DNA of 64,000 nucleotides, taken from NCBI RefSeq assembly GCF_055900595.2, contig NZ_CM148325.1; one strand, given 5' to 3'. The notes beneath the pieces were generated by a model that was not told the origin of the DNA, did no database searches, and saw only the letters and a list, made by a program, of their open reading frames with translations. The position numbers were made by a program, and so were the translations under genes. Positions 4,002 to 14,717 of the stretch are shown piece after piece; the first letter of the stretch is position 1, and the number at the start of each line of letters is the position of its first letter.

Positions 4002-4244
4002 TGCGGTTTAACCCTCCTCATCATCTCGCCCCTGCCCTTTTTCAGGCGCGGGAGCCGGTTGCCGTGGCACATGAAATTTATCGCTATCAGACATTTATTT
4101 TTTCCCGTGTGTTGTTGAACAAACTGCCCGCACAGTTTTGACGGAACGGCGGGCGCTTCAAGCGTAACACACCCTTCTTTTCCGGTTGAAGGCGAAAAAA
4201 ACCGGACAGCTACCCGACACAAACCAGACCAGCGGAGAACTGCC

Positions 4245-4799
4245 ATGTACGCACTTAAACCTATGGGGATACCAGGCAAAGCCCCGGCGCATGTGAAAGC
4301 CTGGACACAGCAGGAAGATGATTTGCTGATCACCCTGTACCCGCAGCACACAGCACGAGATATCGCCGGACGTCTGGGGCGCAGCTACGAAGGAGTTCGC
4401 GGCCGCATTTCTCGTCTGCGTGAACAGGGCAGGATTGGCATCAAGCAGCAAAGACTAAGCGATGAGATGATCGCCACGCTCATCAGGAACCGCCACACCA
4501 GGTCCCTCAAGGAACTGGCACACATGGCGAAAGTTTCGACACGCACGGTAACCAACCGATTGAGGGCGCTGGGCTACAGCCTGATCAAATGCGGAGAACT
4601 GCATAAAAACGCCGTCTACAGCGACTGCATCGTTGAGATTATCAACCAGTTACGCGACGAGCAGGGCCTGACGTTCAGGGAAATCGCGCAGCGCCTTAGC
4701 CACGAACTACAGCCGAACCCCACCCCGGCACTTGCTCGCCATCTCTACTGGCGCCGCACAGCAGCCGACGCCGTACTCCGCGAACTGTTACCAGATTGA
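4245..4799 (+). CDS. DNA-binding protein with repeated helix-turn-helix-like segments (184 aa), early/replication operon
   Basis: ORF track; three HTH-like segments (TARDIAGRLGRSYEGVRGRISRLR, SLKELAHMAKVSTRTVTNRLRALG, TFREIAQRLSHE). Confidence 0.5.
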   Translation: MYALKPMGIPGKAPAHVKAWTQQEDDLLITLYPQHTARDIAGRLGRSYEGVRGRISRLREQGRIGIKQQRLSDEMIATLIRNRHTRSLKELAHMAKVSTRTVTNRLRALGYSLIKCGELHKNAVYSDCIVEIINQLRDEQGLTFREIAQRLSHELQPNPTPALARHLYWRRTAADAVLRELLPD

Positions 4800-5119
4800 G
4801 CAATCACCATGTACACACAAAAAAACCGCTTGCAACAACAAACCGGAACAGGGTACGCTTCCCCCGCACCTCATAAAACGGGTGTCGGGTTTCGCAGCCT
4901 GCTGACTAGCAAAGCGCACAACCGCGCCAGCGGTTTTTTTGTGCGTACTGTATTGCCACGTCTTTTTCGCACACGAATTATGGCGGGGCGTACGGGGCCG
5001 ACTTCGGTCGGGCCGGGTTCTTTGCTAGCCGGTACTGCGAACCTCGTACGTCTCGCCACCCACAGTTTCGCAGCTCTGGATGGTGAGTTTTTAAAACTTA
5101 CTAGCAAAGAGGCCACACC
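4800..5119 (+). promoter_or_regulatory. Structured intergenic region with repeats and hairpins
   Basis: CTAGCAAAG occurs three times: direct at about 4905 and 5100, inverted (CTTTGCTAG) at about 5022. Also a CCGAC-TTCG-GTCGG hairpin with a UUCG-type loop at about 5008-5021 and a terminator-like CCGCGCCAGCGG plus T7 at about 4922-4940. Confidence 0.4.
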
Positions 5120-5338
5120 ATGGCAAACCGCAAACAGCGCCGCGCTACTGCGGAGCATCACCACGTCCGCGCCCAAATCGACAAACGCCTTTTCCGCGCA
5201 TCACGCGTTGCACGCATCATGCACATCAACATGCTGCATGAACGCAGAGGGGCACTACCGAACACCTATATCGCCTCCGTTTTCAGCTATCTGGCGGACG
5301 ATCTCGCCGAGCTGCAACACCTCATTAACCAGCACTGA
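5120..5338 (+). CDS. Hypothetical protein (72 aa)
   Basis: ORF track; AAAGAGG Shine-Dalgarno 8 nt upstream of the ATG. Confidence 0.5.
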   Translation: MANRKQRRATAEHHHVRAQIDKRLFRASRVARIMHINMLHERRGALPNTYIASVFSYLADDLAELQHLINQH

Positions 5339-5410
5339 TAAACATCCCGAAGCCATCCTGCGCCCGTTCGCGGGAGGCTTCCACACATCTGTAGTCGGGA
5401 GGATTGCGCC

Positions 5411-5779
5411 ATGATTCTGGCTGACGATTTTCTGGAGTACCTGAACAACACCGAGCGCGACCTGTACGCGCGCGTTCTCACCCGTTACGAGAAATACAAA
5501 CTTTCACTGCCAGAGCATCAACTCCGCGAAGGCGATATCGACATTGAAGGGCGCTACATCGTCAGGCGCCGCATAGCGGGCTACGGCATCTGGCGTGTCA
5601 CCGGACTTGAGCATTCATTGCTGACCATCTGCCAGAGTCCGTCCGGCGTGATAACGGAGATCGTCGCCGATAGTCTGCGACTCACCCATCACAGCGCCAC
5701 CCCGGAAGAAACGCTGGCAGAAACCCAGCGTCTGTGTCGCGTCATTGCCAACGCCGCCCTCCGCGCAGACAGGAGGTAA
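5411..5779 (+). CDS. Hypothetical protein (122 aa), immediately upstream of A
   Basis: ORF track; GGGAGG Shine-Dalgarno upstream. Confidence 0.5.
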   Translation: MILADDFLEYLNNTERDLYARVLTRYEKYKLSLPEHQLREGDIDIEGRYIVRRRIAGYGIWRVTGLEHSLLTICQSPSGVITEIVADSLRLTHHSATPEETLAETQRLCRVIANAALRADRR

Positions 5780-5782
5780 GCG

Positions 5783-8272
5783 ATGGAGTTCGTCAGAGAC
5801 TGGCAAAAACCGCGCCCCGCTATCGGGCGCGAAGGCTTACCCGTACCTGAAACCGCACTGGATACCATCCTGAAGTGTTACCGCGCAGACGAAGAGCGCG
5901 CACTGCACGCTGAAGAGCAGGGTCATCCGCTTGCGGGCACAACCATCGGTAACGCGATCGACAAGTGGGAAGGCGCACAGGAGCGCCAGGAAGAGGCCAT
6001 CACGCTCACACAGGAAGCGAGAAGACACCCGCCCACCCTTATTGAGGAAACCCTCAAAGAGCTGGACACCCTGCCCAAGTGGTTGAGGCTGCCGCTGATT
6101 AAGCACCTGAACTTTTTAAGGCGCAAACAGGAGGACGAACAACAGAAAGGCAAGCGCGGCAAGGACACCCGCAAATATGAGCGCTTCCTGAAAAACGGCA
6201 TCCCCGCACGTCTTCGCCGTATTCGTGAGATTAACGCTCGCTTTGCACCGTTAAGTTTTCAGGCCGCTGCCATGCGCGAGAGTCTGGAAGAACTGATCAC
6301 ACTGCCGAACCTGAGCCGTGAACGCATCCAGAAAATAGCCGTACTGCTTGCCAGCGCCGTTAAAATGCATCTTGCCGACGCAATGGACAAGGCCCGCGAA
6401 ATAACAGGGAACGACAAAGACGACAACCTGAACAACTGGCTGATTGCCTACCAGTATATTGGTCGCCGTGTCCTGAAGCTGGGGATCACCCCACCATACT
6501 GGAGCGCCCTTGAACTCCGCCCCGACCGCAGAAGCCCCCCGGACGTGACACTGGTTCCGGGCGCTGTTTTGCGCCTGAACGACGCCGAATGGTGGAATAA
6601 AAAACTTCGCCAGATGCACGACGTCTGGCGTGAGGAACTTTTACGTGCAGCGGGCCTTGTATCCCGCCAGACCTCCGTTTATGTGAGCCGTGAAGCGCTG
6701 GCAGACTTCCGCGAAAAACAGGCCCGTACCCGCGATTTTCTCAAAGCGCACGACGTGGAGAACGAAGACGGCGAACGCATCAGTCTGGAAGATATCTACT
6801 ACGCCAGTACATCCAACCCGCATAACCGCCGCAACGAGATGATGGCGTGCGTTAAGGGAATGGAGCTTATCGCACAGGAACGCGGCGACGTGGCCTTCTT
6901 CGTCACGGTCACAGCCCCGTCTCGTTTTCACAGCGTCACCGACGCAGGCACGCTGAACCCGAAATACAAAGGCGCAACCGTAAAGGACGCCAGCGACTAT
7001 CTGGTTTATAACTTCTTCGCCTCCGCCCGCAAACTCATCAAAAAAGAGAAGCGGGGCTGGTACGGCATTCGCACCGTGGAGCCTCACCACGACGGCACGC
7101 CCCACTGGCACATGCTGGTATTCACAAGCCCTGAGAACGAAGAGCGCATCACGGAAATCATGTGCAATGCCGCCATTCGCGAAGACCGGGCAGAGCTGGG
7201 CGACGACATCACCCCGCGCTTCAAGTGCGAGAAGATAGATCCCGAAAAAGGCACGCCAACCAGCTACATCGCCACCTACATAGGCAAAGGCATTGACGCC
7301 GCTGCATTCGGCGACACGGATCCAAAAACAGGTAAACCGCCCGTTGACCACGAAAGCGGAAAACCTATGGCGGACACCGTGGAAAACGCCGTCGCCTGGG
7401 CGCGCCTGCATCGCATTCGCCAGTTCCAGTTCTTTGGCCTCCCTTCCCGTCAGGTGTGGCGTGAGTTCCGCCGCCTTGCCGGACAAATGGCACGCAACCC
7501 GAAGGGGCCGCAGGCACTGACCAACCCCAAAGCCGACGCCCTCCTTGTTGCAGCCGATACGGGGTGTTTTGCCAGCTACATCATGCATCAGGGCGGTGTG
7601 CTCATTCCCCGTAGTGAATATCTGGCCCGCACAGCCTACGTCACCGCAGAAGAGCCGAACAATTACAGCGAATTCCCCGAGCGCATTTACGGTATCCGCA
7701 TGCCGGAACTGGGGGAGGACTTCACGTTATGCACCCACCCGGAAGAGTGGAAAATCGTCAGAAAGGAACCGGAACCAGACAACCGCACGGGCGAGGGTTT
7801 TGACCTTCAGGGCGGCCCCGCCGCCCCTTGGACTCGTGGCAATAACTGTCACCCTGACGAAAAAACAACCAACAACAGCACACAAACAGAACAGTCAGAG
7901 TGGGCAAAACTGCCCCCCTTACCCCCATCGTCGGACGGTTTTGTGAGCTGGTTTAAGTCGCTTAAGAGGCCGGACAGGAAAAAACTACAAAGATTGCTCA
8001 AAAAACGCACCGAAGAGAGTCGCCAGAACGCCAGCGGCGGCACCGACACACCCACCGACACCATTAACCTGGGCGTTGTGCTGCCGGAACTGCCGGAAAT
8101 CGTGCAAGTCCGCCGCGATCTGGAAGCGCTGGGCGCGGACTTCCCCGAAGCAATGGCCCATTCCGTCTTTATGGGTGCCCGCGTTCGTCTGGGTGACGGT
8201 CGCACCGTTCACCGCGACGAGCAGACCGGGCGCATCACCGTCACCAGTCTGCAACCGGAGGCGAAACCATGA
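5783..8272 (+). CDS. A: Replication initiation endonuclease, P2 gpA family
   Basis: 829-aa ORF at the position of P2 gene A (between the early genes and the portal); large rolling-circle-type replication protein. Confidence 0.75.
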   Translation: MEFVRDWQKPRPAIGREGLPVPETALDTILKCYRADEERALHAEEQGHPLAGTTIGNAIDKWEGAQERQEEAITLTQEARRHPPTLIEETLKELDTLPKWLRLPLIKHLNFLRRKQEDEQQKGKRGKDTRKYERFLKNGIPARLRRIREINARFAPLSFQAAAMRESLEELITLPNLSRERIQKIAVLLASAVKMHLADAMDKAREITGNDKDDNLNNWLIAYQYIGRRVLKLGITPPYWSALELRPDRRSPPDVTLVPGAVLRLNDAEWWNKKLRQMHDVWREELLRAAGLVSRQTSVYVSREALADFREKQARTRDFLKAHDVENEDGERISLEDIYYASTSNPHNRRNEMMACVKGMELIAQERGDVAFFVTVTAPSRFHSVTDAGTLNPKYKGATVKDASDYLVYNFFASARKLIKKEKRGWYGIRTVEPHHDGTPHWHMLVFTSPENEERITEIMCNAAIREDRAELGDDITPRFKCEKIDPEKGTPTSYIATYIGKGIDAAAFGDTDPKTGKPPVDHESGKPMADTVENAVAWARLHRIRQFQFFGLPSRQVWREFRRLAGQMARNPKGPQALTNPKADALLVAADTGCFASYIMHQGGVLIPRSEYLARTAYVTAEEPNNYSEFPERIYGIRMPELGEDFTLCTHPEEWKIVRKEPEPDNRTGEGFDLQGGPAAPWTRGNNCHPDEKTTNNSTQTEQSEWAKLPPLPPSSDGFVSWFKSLKRPDRKKLQRLLKKRTEESRQNASGGTDTPTDTINLGVVLPELPEIVQVRRDLEALGADFPEAMAHSVFMGARVRLGDGRTVHRDEQTGRITVTSLQPEAKP

Positions 8273-8679
8273 ACCGTTATCATTGTGTACTGCCGCGCCA
8301 CTACTTCGGTCAGATTATGCGCTCGCGTATTCCGGCGGTCACGCTGCGAAACCTGAGCACGGTACCGCAGCCGGGCGATGAGCTGGAAATCGCCGTAGCA
8401 GGCCCTGACCGTTCAGCCAGCTGCGTGACCGCCGACGTGCTGAACGCCGTGCCCGTAGGTGGTGACTGGCTGGTTGCCATCCGCTTCCGCCAAGACCCGT
8501 TCGCACCTGAACCGCTCACCCCCGCAGGCCGCATCATGCAGAACTGGCGGGATGAACGCGCGAAGGCGAACTGCGAAAAACTGATTAACAGGATTGCCAC
8601 GACAAACCGACATGCCGCGCTGGCGCGCCGGATATACCCCGCAAAATCAACACAACCAACAGGAGTAAAAGGCCCATGA
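8269..8679 (+). CDS. Hypothetical protein (136 aa), translationally coupled to A
   Basis: ATGA overlap with the A stop; no recognised family. Confidence 0.5.
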   Translation: MNRYHCVLPRHYFGQIMRSRIPAVTLRNLSTVPQPGDELEIAVAGPDRSASCVTADVLNAVPVGGDWLVAIRFRQDPFAPEPLTPAGRIMQNWRDERAKANCEKLINRIATTNRHAALARRIYPAKSTQPTGVKGP

Positions 8680-8804
8680 AAAGAATCGCCGGAACTGACT
8701 ACCAGGAGCTGCTTAAAGCGGTGGAAAACTACCGTTCAGCGCTGGTGTGGTGTGAGATTAAGCCCTGTGACCCGGGAGCAGTTAAGGATTGCAACCGGCG
8801 CGTG
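8676..8804 (+). CDS. Small hypothetical protein (about 42 aa), translationally coupled
   Basis: ATGA overlap with the upstream ORF stop; AGGAG Shine-Dalgarno. Below ORF track cutoff; low confidence. Confidence 0.3.
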
Positions 8805-8937
8805 AGGACATTCAGCGCGTAATTGGCTACCGCTATGTAGCAGCCATTATTGACCTTGTGAATGAACTGGAGGAAGCAAAAGAGCGCATCGCAGAACTGG
8901 AAACCCAGAATAACCCCAACCAGCAGGAGCAGAAGCC

Positions 8938-9519
8938 ATGAAAAAAAGAGACCTTAAAAAACACCTCCGTAGTCAGATTGAATATTTTGAAGATAAGGCT
9001 GCAAAAACAGGGCTTTCCGGTAAAGAGAACATGAACTTCAGGGCACACCTCCTGACGTGGAGAATACTTAATATCACGAGAGATGGACTTGAGCCGCTAG
9101 CCTACCTGATGGAAGATGGCGAGACCCTCATACAGGATCCCAATGTGGAAATGGAGAAGAAAGAGATGGACCTGCCGATAATCGGGCTGTTTGAGATCCC
9201 TGAACTAATAGGACGTTATGAACACGAAAACCGCCAGCTTGCCGCCTTTTTATCCGTGACAATCGAACGACTGGAAACCGTGAAACACGATATTCCGTTC
9301 GGTTTTGATGAGCGCACCGAGGGTGATTTGCTCAGCTTTCAGATTGCCCTGAACGTGCTCACCGCAGAGCCTTCTGCGTGGCTACGCCCGGAACGGCACC
9401 ACAACACGTTCGCATTTACCGTAATTCCCTACGATGCCGCACAGGAAGAGGATAACTTCGAGACCAGGCTTGTTCCCCTGTATCAGATTGCGGATTTCTA
9501 TACGTTGATTCGCTGGTAA
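8938..9519 (+). CDS. Uncharacterised cargo protein (193 aa)
   Basis: ORF track; AGGAG Shine-Dalgarno; acidic, no TM, no motif I can assign; followed by an intrinsic terminator. Confidence 0.55.
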   Translation: MKKRDLKKHLRSQIEYFEDKAAKTGLSGKENMNFRAHLLTWRILNITRDGLEPLAYLMEDGETLIQDPNVEMEKKEMDLPIIGLFEIPELIGRYEHENRQLAAFLSVTIERLETVKHDIPFGFDERTEGDLLSFQIALNVLTAEPSAWLRPERHHNTFAFTVIPYDAAQEEDNFETRLVPLYQIADFYTLIRW

Positions 9520-9532
9520 TCCCCCACAGTAA

Positions 9533-9558
9533 AACAGCCCGACCGGGCTGTTTTTTTA
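9533..9558 (+). terminator. Intrinsic terminator
   Basis: ACAGCCCGACCGGGCTG hairpin followed by T7. Confidence 0.6.
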
Positions 9559-9614
9559 TCTGATATTTTTGATAACGTTGACCGGCTCATTAGCAAAAAA
9601 GCAAAGAGGAAAAC

Positions 9615-10001
9615 ATGAAAGCCCGTATCGGGATCATCCCGGAAAAAGCCCTGCGCCAGCACCTGATTGATATTGCCAGAGGGAAGCGAAAACCACAGCC
9701 CGACGAGCCAAAGGTATGGTTTTCATCCATCAATGCGGCAGGCCAGACGCTGAGCAATGAAAATATCGCCCTTCTGCGTCTTATGAATGAGGAGAAGCCG
9801 CAGACCATGACCGCACTTGCGGAGTTATCCGGCAGAAAACTGAGCAACCTGTCTGTAACCCTGAAAATGCTGAGCAGCTACGGTTTTGTCAGTCTGGAAA
9901 AGAAAGGGAATACTGTACACCCGAAAGCACTTTTTACCGATTTTGAAATCATCGTTGATCCGTCCGTGGGTTCAGTACATCGCGCCACCGCCCGGCCCTG
10001 A
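9615..10001 (+). CDS. Small winged-HTH-like DNA-binding protein (128 aa)
   Basis: ORF track; AAGAGGA Shine-Dalgarno; central segment MTALAELSGRKLSNLSVTLKMLSSYGFVSL resembles a wHTH recognition region. Confidence 0.5.
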   Translation: MKARIGIIPEKALRQHLIDIARGKRKPQPDEPKVWFSSINAAGQTLSNENIALLRLMNEEKPQTMTALAELSGRKLSNLSVTLKMLSSYGFVSLEKKGNTVHPKALFTDFEIIVDPSVGSVHRATARP

Positions 10002-10013
10002 AGTGCGCAATAA

Positions 10014-10040
10014 ACAGCCCCGTTCGGGGCTGTTATTTAT
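10014..10040. terminator. Bidirectional intrinsic terminator
   Basis: CAGCCCCGTTCGGGGCTG hairpin flanked by T-rich sequence on both strands, between convergent genes. Confidence 0.55.
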
Positions 10041-10411
10041 TCCAGAATCAGCTGTTCAGGTGTGCAGCCGTACAGTCTGGCAAGGCGCTCAATATTTGCC
10101 CTGCGCGGGCGTTCTGTTCTTTCGAATTCGGACACGGTAGCCTGCCTGATACCCAGCGCATCCGCCACCTGCTTTTGCGTCATTCCGCGATAGATTCGCC
10201 ACGCCGCCTGCATGGTGCAGCCACGTTCCGAGAGGATGTTGACCACCTCGTTGGGATACAGCGTATCAGGCGATGCACTCGGTTCGTTCTGGACGTCCTC
10301 GTAGAGTTCGTCAAGGTCGCTGTCTCCTGCCAGTTTTTCAAACAACGCCACTGGCAGAATGACGGATACCCTGTTACCCGCACCGTCAGTAATAAACTGA
10401 ATCTGACTCAT
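10037..10411 (-). CDS. HigA-like antitoxin, XRE-family HTH (124 aa)
   Basis: C-terminal HTH (MTQKQVADALGIRQATVSEFERTERPRRANIERLARLYGCTPEQL); immediately downstream of a RelE/ParE-like gene. Confidence 0.65.
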   Translation of the reverse strand: MSQIQFITDGAGNRVSVILPVALFEKLAGDSDLDELYEDVQNEPSASPDTLYPNEVVNILSERGCTMQAAWRIYRGMTQKQVADALGIRQATVSEFERTERPRRANIERLARLYGCTPEQLILE

Positions 10412-10459
10412 TTGCCCCTCCTGCTAAACATCGGTTTATTTTTTAATTTGCTGCCGGTG

Positions 10460-10484
10460 ATAAAAAACGGCGGGTCGCCCCGCC
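10460..10484 (-). terminator. Intrinsic terminator-like hairpin between toxin and antitoxin genes
   Basis: On the minus-strand transcript: GGCGGG-GCGA-CCCGCC followed by GUUUUUUAU, starting directly after the toxin stop codon. Confidence 0.45.
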
Positions 10485-10757
10485 TTAGTATGTTGTCGAG
10501 GTTCTCCGCTGAATACGGAGGATCCTGATAACCACTATCTGCCCTCCCTCAATCGTGAACCTGACACGGTAATGATTTACCCTGAGTCTGTACTCCCCGC
10601 CCGAGTCAGTGAGCTTTTTAATATCCAGATTCTGGAACTTCGGATAGCCATAAAGCGCGTTAACTTTCTCGCGTAAGGATTTCTGATCCCTCGCTGGCAA
10701 AACCCGTAAATCTTTGATTGCCCGAGGGGTCCACATGATTTCAGTCGTCATAAACAC
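10485..10757 (-). CDS. RelE/ParE-superfamily toxin, HigB-like position (90 aa; start uncertain)
   Basis: MWTPRAIKDLRVLPARDQKSLREKVNAL...YRLRVNHYRVRFTIEGGQIVVIRILRIQRR fits the RelE/ParE pattern; toxin-first gene order is HigBA-like. Confidence 0.65.
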   Translation of the reverse strand: MFMTTEIMWTPRAIKDLRVLPARDQKSLREKVNALYGYPKFQNLDIKKLTDSGGEYRLRVNHYRVRFTIEGGQIVVIRILRIQRRTSTTY

Positions 10758-10860
10758 ACCGGAAGCAAATTATTAAAGAGCCGTGCCCGCTGGCACACCT
10801 TAAATATAGGTTTTAACCCCTATATTGTCAAACAAAATCCCTATATCATGAAGTAAAAAA
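10758..10860. promoter_or_regulatory. Putative operator/promoter of the HigBA-like module
   Basis: ATATAGG-N8-CCTATAT palindrome plus a second CCCTATAT direct repeat, directly upstream of the toxin gene. Confidence 0.4.
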
Positions 10861-10879
10861 GCACCTCCCGCGACCTCCC

Positions 10880-11130
10880 TTTCCGGTGCACGAAAGTGCA
10901 CAAATTTGCACAATTTTTTTGAACGACTTTTTGCCCTTCCGGCCCGTGTGGCGTCTGGATCCGTCGGGGATCCGTGCGTGCACGAAAAAAGGCCTTTTTC
11001 TGCGCGCAGGTGACGGGGGAACAGCCCGCGTTTCAGGGGGTAAATAGCATTCCCTGAACGATGTTGCAGTGACACAACAGAATGGCTGTATTTCTCACGC
11101 TGAGCGTGAAAAAGACGTAAGGGCTTTTGA
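10880..11130. other. Palindrome-dense non-coding stretch (candidate structured RNA or protein-binding array)
   Basis: Consecutive perfect palindromes/hairpins: GTGCAC-GAAA-GTGCAC (10886-10901), GGATCC-GTCGG-GGATCC (10957-10973), CGTGCACG, AAAAAGGCCTTTTT (10986-10999), CTGCGCGCAG (10999-11008), CACGC-TGA-GCGTG (about 11096-11108). Confidence 0.4.
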
Positions 11131-11340
11131 TTTGATGGGGTGAAAGATAAGGCCGTCAAAATCGCACTGAGGCAGCGAGAATATGTCGTCAGAGTTGCGG
11201 GGTTGCGTAAGCATCCGCCCGGCGATGATGGCTACAGGGCTGGAGATGTTGTGAAATTATCTGAAGGAATAACCAGCTTGCAGGAGAACCCGGGCAAAGT
11301 CAGAATAGCGGCAGGCATCAACTCAAAAGAGGATAATGTC

Positions 11341-11844
11341 ATGAGCCACTTTAATGATTTATGCCAGATCAATCGTGAAGCTGAAGAAAAACGCGCTGAG
11401 GCAGCTCAAATTTTGCGGGATGAAGCGGCAAGGCTGATTGATTTCTATGAAGAATGGCTGGGGCTTCCATCCATGTACTGGGAAGACGATGATGGCGACC
11501 TGCACCGCTACGTGGAGACAGGCTTGCCATGTAAGACAGCGGCGGATTTTAGTCCTCTTTCAGTCCACAATATCGCATCTGCACCAGACAATATTTTCCG
11601 CATGGCCGTACGAACCTGGGTTAAGTCATCTGACAGCAGCTACCCGGTAAGCGTGGTTATTGCACTTGAATTATATTCAGTAGATGCGGAACGGGTGTCT
11701 CTGAGAGTCCGGGTGGAAGACGATATTTCTGTTCGCGTATTTATCAATAAACCCAGCGAAGAAGCCTGGGGCGATGTTGTTATGCACATGAAAAAGCACA
11801 TCGCTAATCACCTGAAAAAGCGAGCGCCATCAGCACTTCGTTAA
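11341..11844 (+). CDS. Uncharacterised cargo protein (167 aa from ATG 11341; ORF track gives a 234-aa version from GTG 11140)
   Basis: Strong AAGAGGA Shine-Dalgarno before ATG 11341; sits in the position P2 uses for old, next to the portal gene; followed by the palindrome GGGGCATAAATTTTTTATGCCCC. Confidence 0.5.
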   Translation: MSHFNDLCQINREAEEKRAEAAQILRDEAARLIDFYEEWLGLPSMYWEDDDGDLHRYVETGLPCKTAADFSPLSVHNIASAPDNIFRMAVRTWVKSSDSSYPVSVVIALELYSVDAERVSLRVRVEDDISVRVFINKPSEEAWGDVVMHMKKHIANHLKKRAPSALR

Positions 11845-11910
11845 GCAGAGCTGGAGAGTCGGGGCATAAATTTTTTATGCCCCGGCGAAGCAGCAGACAA
11901 GCGAAGCGCG

Positions 11911-12966
11911 TCAGGATATGGGCCGGGTGTCTAACAGTGCGTAAGGGTTAAAACGGATCACCTCTTCGCCCAGCCAGTCGTTGACGTGTTTCATTGCTTC
12001 CATGACGGGCATCAGTTCGTTAATGGCAAACACACGGGCTGCCTTCTCCACATCCCCGAATGACCCCTTCTCACCCGGCATGGCCCCCATCAGCTGAGGT
12101 GGCACGCGGTGCACAGCCAGCACGTCATCACGCGATGCGGCCTTGACGTTCATGAACTCATCCTTTGCGGTGATTTGCTGAAACGGCAAAATCTGTACGC
12201 CATCCTTACCACCTCCCGCCGCGTGGATGAGCAGATTTTTAAACGCCCCGCCACCACGCGCGCTTTGCAGTGTTTCCCGCAGTTTTTCCATGCTTTCACG
12301 GTCAACCTGCGCCGCACCGATGTAGACAATACAGCCCGCGTGTGAGCCGTTATCGTAGTAGAGCTTGCGGAAGATATCGGCGGAATGTGACAGGCTGGCA
12401 GACAGCAGGCCGCCCAGGTAATCCGGCATCCCGTAAATCTCCTGGTTGATATCAGGATTCATCAGGTGGCATATCGTCCCCTCACGAAAGCGGTACTCTT
12501 CCTGTCCTTCCTGTATATACCACCATGATTTCATATCGCTGCCACGTCGCATGTATTTCGCCAGCGCCCGGCGCAGGGCCAGCGGTTCGCCAAGCATGTT
12601 GCGCCGCAGCTCAAGACAGGCATTACCGAACACAAACCAGTCCATCGCCACCCCGGCGAACTCCTGGCGGGACAGCAGAGGATGTGGAATATAGCAGCCC
12701 AGCAGCACATTACGTTTGAAGCTGAGCGCCGACTGGTGCCAGGACGTCTGGCGGGCAGCCCGTGCCAGTCCGTACCAGTCAACGGGCGTTTCAAACCACC
12801 GCCCGTTGTCGGCGCAGTACATGCTGTCCAGCAGGTCGGCCCCTGACAGCCGGTAAGGTCCTTCAAACGTGAAGGCACTCAGTGTCGGGTCGCTTCGCAG
12901 GGAATCCGCAAGGCTGCCCTGCGCTGCGCGGGCGTTCGTACGTCGTTGTTTATTTTTTCTGCTCAT
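11911..12966 (-). CDS. Q: Portal protein, P2 gpQ family
   Basis: 351-aa ORF divergent from the capsid operon and adjacent to the terminase large subunit, as in P2. Confidence 0.8.
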   Translation of the reverse strand: MSRKNKQRRTNARAAQGSLADSLRSDPTLSAFTFEGPYRLSGADLLDSMYCADNGRWFETPVDWYGLARAARQTSWHQSALSFKRNVLLGCYIPHPLLSRQEFAGVAMDWFVFGNACLELRRNMLGEPLALRRALAKYMRRGSDMKSWWYIQEGQEEYRFREGTICHLMNPDINQEIYGMPDYLGGLLSASLSHSADIFRKLYYDNGSHAGCIVYIGAAQVDRESMEKLRETLQSARGGGAFKNLLIHAAGGGKDGVQILPFQQITAKDEFMNVKAASRDDVLAVHRVPPQLMGAMPGEKGSFGDVEKAARVFAINELMPVMEAMKHVNDWLGEEVIRFNPYALLDTRPIS

Positions 12967-14717
12967 CAGAACTCCGTAACACTGAAGGGGGCGGCATCAT
13001 GTTCACCGCCGACAGGTTCGTTGATAACGGCCAGCATGGTGGCCCATGCAAGATCGCCATGGCTTACGCCTCTTGCGCGATCTGTTTCGTAGGTGATAAA
13101 TCCGGCCTGCGTTTTTGTTTTGCGTACCGCGTTAAAGGCGCTCACCAGTTCGCGCTCGCTGCGGTCGTACTCCCACCGCCCGGCGCGCATGAGCTGCAGC
13201 ATCTTCAGAACCAGCGTGCGCTTTGATGACAGGGTGAAGGTGTAGGGAATGGCTGCCGGAAAAAAGCGCTTCACAATCTGATACACCGCATCCCCGTGAC
13301 CGCCGGTTACGTCAATACCGATATGCTCAACGTTATAGCGAAAGGTGAACTCTTCAATCACCTTCGCCTGCGCCTCAAACTCCAGCCCCTGCACCCGCCG
13401 CGTCTCCACGGTGCGAAAACGCCCGCCCGGTACGGCTGGCGGCACCACCACGACAACCGCCCCGCTGTCACCGTTCCCGCTACTGCCGTTGGCGTCGTAC
13501 CCAATCCACACAGGGCGGTTCCCCATCGGACGCGGTGCAAACGGCTTCCAGTCCGGCCACTCGTCGTATCCGTCAACACCGCAGCCAATCAGGATATTCA
13601 GGTTAAATGCCGATTCCCCTTCGCGAGCAAATTCACACATGTAGAGATTGCGGAACTCGTCTTCAGTGTTATTGCGCCGGATTTTGTCAATGTTGGTTAA
13701 CGTCCATCCCTGACTGACCACATCTTCCAGCGTCACAATTTGCCGCCAGATATAGTCAGGACAGATAAGGCCGTTATGAAGCGCATTCCAGCTCACATCA
13801 AAATGCTGACGTTTATGAGTACGAAGCCCTTCATTCCAGTGATCGCCGTTCCAGTATGCATACGCCTCATGTGTTTCACTTGATGGCGTGGAAAAATAGG
13901 TACACCGCAAACCATCCAGCGTTGCCATAGCAGCAGCCACCTTGCGCAGCTCTGCGAAACGCCCCGTCCAGAAAAACTCATCAAAATACAGATTCCCTGT
14001 GTACGCTTGCGCGGTGGCCGCAGAAGTGCCGAGAAAATGCAGCTCTGCACCGTTGGAGAGGATGACTTTATCGCCCCCTTTCAGTTCCACATCAACTTCA
14101 GATGCAGCCTTCTGAATAATGCTTTTAAACTGGAGCGCCTGACGACGAGACGCAGACAAAAAAATCTGGTTACGCTGGTAAGGTTGTGCCACATCGTCAC
14201 GCAGCGCCATCAGCAGCGCTTCCTGCGCAAAATACCAGGTCGCCCCAATCTGGCGGGATTTCAGGATCATCCTGTCAGTAATTCCGGCACGCTCACAGGC
14301 ACCGATAGCATCAAGCCATTTGCGCTGGTGTCCGGCCAGCCTGTCGGTAATTTTTTCCCGCAGCGCCGCGATCTGTTCCGGCGTGAAATGATTTTTGTGT
14401 TTTTTCGCCCGGCCTTTCTTTCCTGTTGCCGTCTCATCCGGCAGACCGTCATGCAGCTTTTTAAGCTGACGGGTCAGCAAATCAATTTCCTTAAAGTCCC
14501 CGCCTGTTTTATTCTGTTTTTCCGTGAGCTGAATGAGTCGCGCATCCATGGACTGCGTGACACGCTGAACCGGGGGCGTCTCATCCCACTGGTCGCGTTT
14601 TTTCCACGAATGGATCGTGTTCTGGTTGATACCCATAAGGCGGGAAATTTCCGCAACAGGGTAACCCTGCCAGTACAGCTGGCGTGCCCGCTGGCGAACA
14701 AATGTATCCTGAATCAT
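12966..14717 (-). CDS. P: Terminase large (ATPase) subunit, P2 gpP family
   Basis: 583 aa with an N-terminal HTH (YWQGYPVAEISRLMGINQNTIHSW); position matches P2 P. Confidence 0.85.
   Translation of the reverse strand: MIQDTFVRQRARQLYWQGYPVAEISRLMGINQNTIHSWKKRDQWDETPPVQRVTQSMDARLIQLTEKQNKTGGDFKEIDLLTRQLKKLHDGLPDETATGKKGRAKKHKNHFTPEQIAALREKITDRLAGHQRKWLDAIGACERAGITDRMILKSRQIGATWYFAQEALLMALRDDVAQPYQRNQIFLSASRRQALQFKSIIQKAASEVDVELKGGDKVILSNGAELHFLGTSAATAQAYTGNLYFDEFFWTGRFAELRKVAAAMATLDGLRCTYFSTPSSETHEAYAYWNGDHWNEGLRTHKRQHFDVSWNALHNGLICPDYIWRQIVTLEDVVSQGWTLTNIDKIRRNNTEDEFRNLYMCEFAREGESAFNLNILIGCGVDGYDEWPDWKPFAPRPMGNRPVWIGYDANGSSGNGDSGAVVVVVPPAVPGGRFRTVETRRVQGLEFEAQAKVIEEFTFRYNVEHIGIDVTGGHGDAVYQIVKRFFPAAIPYTFTLSSKRTLVLKMLQLMRAGRWEYDRSERELVSAFNAVRKTKTQAGFITYETDRARGVSHGDLAWATMLAVINEPVGGEHDAAPFSVTEF

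Follow-up and report, generated by a model that had tools for sequence, protein, structure and literature searches.

Introduction

The interval between the replication gene gpA and the portal gene gpQ of P2-like phages, close to cos, was described as a defence hotspot by Rousset 2022 (PMC9122126), where the cos (packaging) site of these phages is also placed at this spot; the same hotspot of P2-like elements is covered in a 2026 preprint. In P2 it holds old and tin, lysogenic-conversion genes with their own promoter on the cos side, and in phage 186 the tum-orf97 operon, of which Orf97 blocks superinfection when expressed. Two kinds of toxin-antitoxin (TA) module are further points of comparison, namely HigBA-type pairs and TumE-TumA, the latter a translation-targeting TA superfamily (DUF6516) described by Durairaj et al. 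2023 (PMC10584680). We report here on the gpA-to-portal interval of a P2-like prophage of E. coli, of the P88 type (Xuanwuvirus), contained in a stretch of 64,000 nucleotides (nt) of contig NZ_CM148325.1 (RefSeq assembly GCF_055900595.2); this whole stretch is called the window, and all positions refer to it unless a genome is named.

The island in this interval is read as a mosaic of at least five independent units and as no single system, with a probability of about 0.7. The units would be an extension of the early operon, a decayed TumE-type TA module, an intact RelE/Xre TA pair, cos, and the single gene orf167. This reading is carried by direct observations: the gene anatomy, the gene remnants, a recombination tract, and modules that occur independently of one another.

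Comparison with described systems

The island resembles the P2 old-tin locus and the hotspot of Rousset in lying in the A-to-Q interval beside cos, in consisting of swapped cargo with a low guanine-plus-cytosine (GC) content, and in having an operon on the minus strand with its promoter towards cos, which in the window is a relE-helix-turn-helix (HTH) pair that takes the slot and orientation of the P2 old-tin operon. Unlike P2, the window holds no homologue of Old (ABC ATPase-Toprim) or Tin, as had been predicted: tblastn of P2 Old (586 aa) against the 64-kb window gave a best expect value (E) of 6.5, with PADLOC also blank, and that of P2 Tin (253 aa) a best E of 0.37 over 25 aa, outside the island. 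Nor does it hold a system recognised by PADLOC. With PADLOC-DB v2 no family was matched by orf136, the halves of orf88, orf193, RelE, and orf167, and the winged-HTH (wHTH) and Xre proteins matched only the HTH portions of CasR, CARF, RmrA, and CapH models; searches of orf193, orf167, orf88, and orf136 with PADLOC, Pfam, NCBIfam, and PDB sequences returned only PHROG families that have no assigned function. The backbone is also unlike P2, being that of a Xuanwuvirus with a gpA 32% identical to P2 A (over 618 aa, E 6.5e-79), and cos has variable DNA to its left and right, as it does in P88-like phages. Instead of having a cos-side promoter of their own, as old and tin do, orf88 and orf193 are chained to the early operon. 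Plus-strand accessory genes between A and cos are a feature shared with the tum-orf97 operon of phage 186, but Tum and Orf97 have no sequence similarity to any island protein; no LexA box beyond chance was found in the island.

Hotspot borders and distribution of the modules

The top phage matches of positions 5700-13000 are P88, Chuche, 520873, and relatives, with 77-82% identity over gpA and portal. From 0.58-0.62 in the backbone, GC falls to 0.47-0.53 between about 8600 and 11900. The interval lies between the replication endonuclease and portal genes, beside the cos block at 10887-11264, and its gene content differs among otherwise near-identical prophages; P88, PhiR44_2, and the prophage L008 hold ParM/StbB and other genes in it. 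It is the already known cos-proximal variable hotspot (Rousset 2022, PMC9122126), and the original prediction was right to place there an island of swapped-in cargo, which is rare and low in GC. The cargo had been taken to begin at 8269, directly behind gpA. Its start was moved to about 8696, because orf136 has a backbone-like GC of 0.62 and is kept after gpA in related prophages (85% identical in L005, 44% in L013-16); orf136 is a backbone gene and does not belong to the cargo.

Frequencies were surveyed in a sample of 5426 complete E. coli genomes. Three of these hold the segment 8600-11910 complete and six more share 74% of it; the TA block is present in nine, orf193 in three, orf167 in 30, and the cos block in 1141. 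In the six sisters (e.g., L002, E. coli TUM9803) the backbone is essentially identical and tumE replaces orf88-orf193; in L002 this gene, at 4217-4591, encodes a 124-aa protein (WP_029490435) named 'toxin-antitoxin system TumE family protein' or 'DUF6516 family protein' by RefSeq. Across lineages each module occurs without the others, and the genes do not travel as a unit. The genes are not all conserved replication or morphogenesis genes either, and the same set is not found in most P2-like phages, in line with what the original prediction had expected.

Several points weigh against the mosaic and against the identities given to its parts. Every E. coli context read for this orf193 allele is the same nine-gene haplotype, and from this fixed haplotype a common function of the neighbours is possible on E. 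coli data alone. The promoter scan used below was a crude consensus search. Pfam-A and NCBIfam scans of the 124-aa protein of L002 gave no DUF6516, even at E 10, and its identity as TumE comes from RefSeq/UniProt names; moreover, the TumAs validated by experiment are different proteins, encoded in the reverse order relative to their toxins (PMC10584680). Finally, the hotspot location in itself raises the prior for an antiviral role of orf193 and orf167. The nine-gene haplotype reflects a single circulating prophage lineage, and the locus, read as a mosaic, adds one cargo arrangement to a well-studied phage hotspot. The features are collected in Table 1.

Table 1 Features of the gpA-to-portal interval, in order of position; putative functions are those argued for in the text.
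Feature	Position	Strand	Remarks
gpA-like replication endonuclease, 829 aa	5783-8272	+	Left hotspot anchor; ORF (open reading frame) list
orf136, 136 aa, backbone early-operon gene	8269-8679	+	ATGA overlap with A
orf88, frameshifted	8676-8941	+	Reads as 8676-8822 plus 8789-8941
orf193, 193 aa, last gene of the early chain	8938-9519	+	ATGA overlap at 8938
Intrinsic terminator ending the early-operon extension	9531-9554	+	10-bp stem and T-run
tumE 3' remnant	9553-9618	+	21 codons and stop, FLSDIFDNVDRLISKKAKRKT; stop overlaps tumA start
HVO_A0114-family wHTH protein, 128 aa, TumA-type, promoterless orphan	9615-10001	+	Pfam PF25212
Hairpin terminator between convergent tumA and HTH-antitoxin genes	10013-10034	.	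9-bp stem, 6 GC pairs
Xre-type HTH protein, putative antitoxin, 124 aa, downstream gene	10037-10411	-	HTH residues 70-122
RelE/ParE-superfamily protein, putative toxin, 88-90 aa, upstream gene	10485-10757	-	ATG at 10751
TA promoter TTGACA-17-TATATT and two 21-nt direct repeats	10803-10856	-	Putative operators
Conserved non-coding block with putative cos (packaging) site	10887-11264	.	Core 10999-11028, CTGCGCGCAGGTGACGGGGGAACAGCCC
orf167, 167 aa, single-gene cargo between cos and portal	11341-11844	+	phrog_5091
Hairpin between convergent orf167 and portal genes, P2 tQ equivalent	11860-11884	.	-26.4 kcal/mol, z -4.0
Portal protein gpQ	11911-12966	-	Right hotspot anchor; ORF list; RefSeq 'phage portal protein'

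Early-operon extension and orf193

ATGA stop/start overlaps at 8269, 8676, and 8938 join gpA to orf136, orf136 to orf88, and orf88 to orf193, which confirms the predicted translational coupling of the small ORFs; within the chain the consensus scan predicted no internal promoter. Because they are translationally coupled and closed by a terminator, the genes of this chain are presumably lytic; they would be made together in lytic growth and be silent in the lysogen. orf136 matches phrog_14984 (E 4e-41), a family with no assigned function, and orf88 weakly matches phrog_16519 (E 1.8e-9). All ORFs of the predicted list exist, but the second small one ends at 8822, not at 8804, and is one half of a split orf88: relative to three complete E. 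coli genomes and seven further assemblies a single G has been lost at about 8796 (CCGGGCG to CCGGCG), and orf88 is intact, at 88 aa, in every other copy examined (L001, L018, L019, L026-32). For the frameshift, at 8790-8800, there are two explanations: the gene has been inactivated in this prophage alone, or a short run of G/C was misread in sequencing.

Neither Pfam, NCBIfam, nor PADLOC gave a match for orf193. Word search found two clusters among 5.8 billion proteins, and a full HMMER search four relatives among 1.84 billion representatives. Its two halves are homologous (N- versus C-terminal half, hhalign 96.8%, E 2.8e-10) and share the motif DIPFGFDE..E..L....IAL..LTAEPSAW (short form IAL..LTAEPxAW); the protein is a tandem duplication of a novel helical domain of about 95 aa. 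The AlphaFold2 (AF2) model is helical and weak (predicted local distance difference test, pLDDT, 65), and Foldseek found no structural match to it. Two homologues, P0002 (53% identity) and P0013 (36%), occupy the same gpA-portal place in other P2-like prophages, right after the orf136 homologue and just ahead of ogr and portal; in L005 and L013-16 the homologues stand without orf88 and without a TumA partner. A further relative, P0014, has one copy of the domain and is encoded in the early-left region (recombination to xis/int) of a lambdoid prophage. orf193 is a genuine accessory protein of phages, though a very rare one, and can do without the neighbours it has in the window.

From the position of orf193 in the operon we infer that a lytic-cycle or counter-defence role is favoured over defence expressed in the lysogen. 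The stronger proposal, that orf193, perhaps with orf88 and orf167, is a lytic accessory or counter-defence protein aiding replication or immunity escape after induction or infection, is held to be rather unlikely. It accords with the ATGA chaining of orf88 and orf193 to gpA and the terminator behind them, with the homologue of L005 (191 aa), which likewise overlaps orf136, with the single-domain relative in the lambdoid early-left region, and with small repeat-domain and alpha+beta folds that resemble protein-binding modules more than enzymes. There is, against this, no homology to known anti-defence proteins; orf88 tolerates a frameshift in the window; and the proposal is drawn from gene position only.

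A probable decayed TumE-type module

The 128-aa wHTH protein matches Pfam HVO_A0114 (PF25212, E 3e-16), in agreement with its RefSeq name, and also falls in a PHROG family without assigned function. The original prediction had recognised no family for any non-TA protein of the island; for this protein that does not hold, and the statement stands in the functional sense only, for orf136, orf167, and the wHTH protein, whose PHROG families have no assigned function.

In L002 and five further sister genomes the gene named tumE overlaps the wHTH homologue by 4 nt, toxin first; L002 tumE has its own extended -10 promoters upstream, and the wHTH allele of L002 is 91% identical to that of the window. 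The remnant ahead of the wHTH gene aligns in frame to the final codons of the 124-aa gene of L002 (tblastn, 65% over 20 aa, E 0.002). Lost from the window are the tumE promoter and the first 103 or so codons of the toxin; tblastn found no other TumE-like ORF in the window, and an intact DUF6516/TumE toxin gene is lacking. The consensus scan predicted no plus-strand promoter for tumA, and a strong terminator (9531-9554) lies directly upstream. The likeness to TumE-TumA is in the 4-nt overlap with the gene that RefSeq names tumE in the sisters and in the last 21 codons left in the window; unlike a TumE-TumA module, the window has neither toxin gene nor promoter, and the toxin-first order is unlike that of most validated pairs. 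Because of the in-frame 21-codon stub, the lost promoter, the upstream terminator, and the overlap with tumE in the sisters, the wHTH protein is, by its sequence context, probably the partner left behind by a TumE-type TA that has decayed, and a putative antitoxin. Decay would have followed the expected order, in which the toxin goes first and the antitoxin persists as a harmless orphan, and the orphan TumA could at most neutralise a TumE from another element. With its putative antitoxin gene, toxin stub, and missing promoter the locus would be a clean natural case of toxin-first decay of a TumE-type TA.

A replacement of the toxin was also considered, in which orf193 would be a new toxin in the stead of TumE and the TumA-type protein still present would neutralise it. 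orf193 does lie where tumE would be, just ahead of tumA, TumE family toxins have been reported with diverse antitoxins (PMC10584680), and the residues at which the tumA allele differs all lie in the N-terminal half. A strong terminator and a 95-nt gap with the tumE remnant nevertheless separate orf193 from tumA, the tumA promoter is lost, homologues of orf193 occur in L005 and L013-16 without TumA, and orf193 is co-translated with replication genes, unlike a TA toxin. The exchange is very improbable, and it was rejected on the terminator, the tumE remnant, and the partnerless homologues.

Between the window and L002, homology stops between 8695 and 8696 and restarts at 9553. All 40 mismatches fall in 9555-10035, 12 of them in 61 nt that belong to the tumE remnant, and none in 10036-12100; the clustering therefore marks a distinct recombination tract. 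The window and L002 could each have arisen by deletion from an ancestor in which tumE-tumA came after orf88-orf193. Recombination could instead have imported the tract 8696-10035, and the 8% divergence confined to that tract fits such an import.

L002 keeps, at 4077-4145, the first seven codons of orf88 (MKRIAGT), so that each variant holds a stub of the other's gene, which hints at an ancestor with both gene pairs. Compared with the tumE-linked allele, the tumA of the window has 11 residue differences, all at aa 12-67 (window 9649-9814) and none in the C-terminal 61; synonymous codon changes number 13 and are scattered over the whole gene. The N-terminal clustering may stem from the surface that binds the partner, from relaxed selection, or from the edge of a recombined segment.

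RelE/ParE and Xre-HTH pair

The minus-strand pair had been predicted to be HigB/HigA-like. The layout bears this out: it is a toxin-first bicistron with a RelE/ParE toxin of about 88 aa and an antitoxin with a C-terminal Xre HTH, and the repeats at its promoter suit autoregulation. Unlike HigBA-type pairs, the toxin fits ParE_toxin and RelE_StbE models, not HigB or Gp49, and the antitoxin has an extra N-terminal region of about 65 aa without a solved relative. The toxin matches phrog_1213 'RelE-like toxin' (E 1.2e-14) and NCBIfam TIGR02385 RelE_StbE (E 1e-4; 22.6 bits, under the cutoff of 27.9); PF05016 ParE_toxin is precomputed on the same protein in other genomes, and the closest solved structure is RelE3 (3bpq, E 3.7e-4). 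The antitoxin matches phrog_7241 (E 1.3e-29) and has precomputed Pfam HTH_3, HTH_31, and HTH_26 assignments. The two genes are co-oriented, toxin first, with a gap of 73 nt and a single promoter, and the pair ends at the hairpin 10013-10034. The promoter, at 10831-10803, matches the sigma-70 consensus at 11 of 12 positions, and direct repeat D1 (10815-10856), a putative operator, overlaps it.

The pair is an intact, self-promoted type II TA of the RelE/ParE and Xre-HTH kind, with TA activity predicted from these similarities. The toxin would cleave mRNA in a ribosome-dependent manner, and the antitoxin would neutralise it and repress its own operon at the repeated operators; the pair would stabilise the prophage and possibly act in abortive infection. 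In an Edwardsiella prophage a Gp49/HTH pair sits in the same slot. The tumE-variant locus is in Table S5A of Rousset (PMC9122126) as 'hypothetical + HTH_3 + ParE_toxin'.

At 8618-8674 of L005, downstream of the orf193 homologue, the last part of the HTH antitoxin gene survives as a stretch of 19 aa with 95% identity; a TA block like that of the window was therefore once there and has since been deleted. The L033 assembly (4975-5813) has the island too, but no ParE/RelE gene is annotated there from the HTH antitoxin to orf167, which may be a second toxin-first TA loss at this locus.

Putative cos region

The palindrome-dense gap that had been put at 250 bp does contain palindromes, GTGCAC and GGATCC, at 10877-10992, but it measures 583 bp (10758-11340) and corresponds to the cos block. 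In each of the 18 phage records that match, block 10887-11264 is 85-89% identical and ends sharply, whichever cargo flanks it. Its 30-nt core has not changed even in the Edwardsiella prophage, where the sequence around it has diverged, and it bears a weak resemblance to the 19-mer of P2 cos. Xuanwuvirus P884B11 has a linear record, and its ends fall between 10931 and 10932, inside the block; this position and the invariant core are the candidates for the cut site. The palindrome-dense non-coding DNA is, on this conservation and position, the putative cos region.

The right two thirds of the block (11030-11264) are conserved in E. coli P88-like phages but not in the Edwardsiella prophage or L008; the P88 annotation has two tiny ORFs (47 and 42 aa) in the equivalent of this part, which may be a packaging signal, a promoter, or coding sequence.

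orf167 and the antiviral reading

orf167 belongs to an uncharacterised, diversifying alpha+beta family (phrog_5091), with a fold of two helices on a seven-strand sheet and structural relatives in many Gammaproteobacteria; relatives of orf167 accompany ParM/StbB, Gp49/HTH, KAP NTPase, or HicAB/Phd-Fic cargo. The consensus scan gave no promoter for it. That orf167 is a cryptic TumE-like toxin was considered, on the ground of this shared arrangement of helices and sheet, and rejected: neither sequence nor AFDB searches gave a DUF6516 match, and the family is widespread without TumA.

Diverged paralogues of orf167, each of 175 aa, lie beside it or replace it in L008 (6648-7175), L009 (890-1417), and L004 (6467-6991); against orf167 these ORFs give a tblastn E of 4e-6 and an hhalign probability of 96%. 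The gap between cos and portal is therefore a second small variable site, served by one protein family.

The original prediction of an undescribed defence system in the island is not supported, the genes being not one system and fitting no PADLOC model beyond generic HTH domains; what is left of it is a possible role for orf193 and orf167. Such a role may be proposed by guilt of location only, because there is no PADLOC model, no single system, and, for orf193, a chain to the early operon. That orf167, expressed in the lysogen, or orf193 is an undescribed single-protein exclusion factor in the manner of Tin or Old is considered unlikely. Both genes sit in a validated defence hotspot (PMC9122126) and have low GC; their families are restricted to the interval and diversify fast, orf167 with tandem paralogues; by the 2026 preprint the locus is filled with unknown genes alone in 19% of P2-like elements, 15-32% of such proteins score as antiviral, and six of eight randomly chosen unknown P4 loci were protective against phages. 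Neither protein, on the other hand, has a PADLOC, Pfam, or NCBIfam match or a recognisable enzymatic or sensor fold; orf193 lacks a separate promoter and is tied to the early operon of lytic growth, and for orf167 the scan gave no promoter either.

The wider claim, that orf193, orf167, or both act on their own against viruses or against host defence, as new proteins swapped at the hotspot by P2-like phages, is a tentative possibility, graded by the published hit rates for unknown hotspot genes. The residual novelty of the locus is in these two compact, well-delimited orphan families, which are cheap candidates for defence and anti-defence screens. A phenotype for either would make it a new single-protein system; otherwise the island is ordinary prophage mosaicism.

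Portal and replication genes

The hairpin between orf167 and the portal gene occupies the position of the P2 terminator tQ, and the only Rfam match, a sub-threshold 'gyrA RNA', is this hairpin. The terminase gene comes after the portal gene, on the minus strand. In identical prophages RefSeq names gpA 'replication endonuclease'. Whereas gpA is intact in the window, it is split or truncated in two of the three complete genomes that have this exact island, L018 (GF60; 724 and 109 aa, 1-673) and L027 (Br_112_kylling; 254 and 567 aa, 346-2834); these prophage copies with a broken gpA may be replication-defective.

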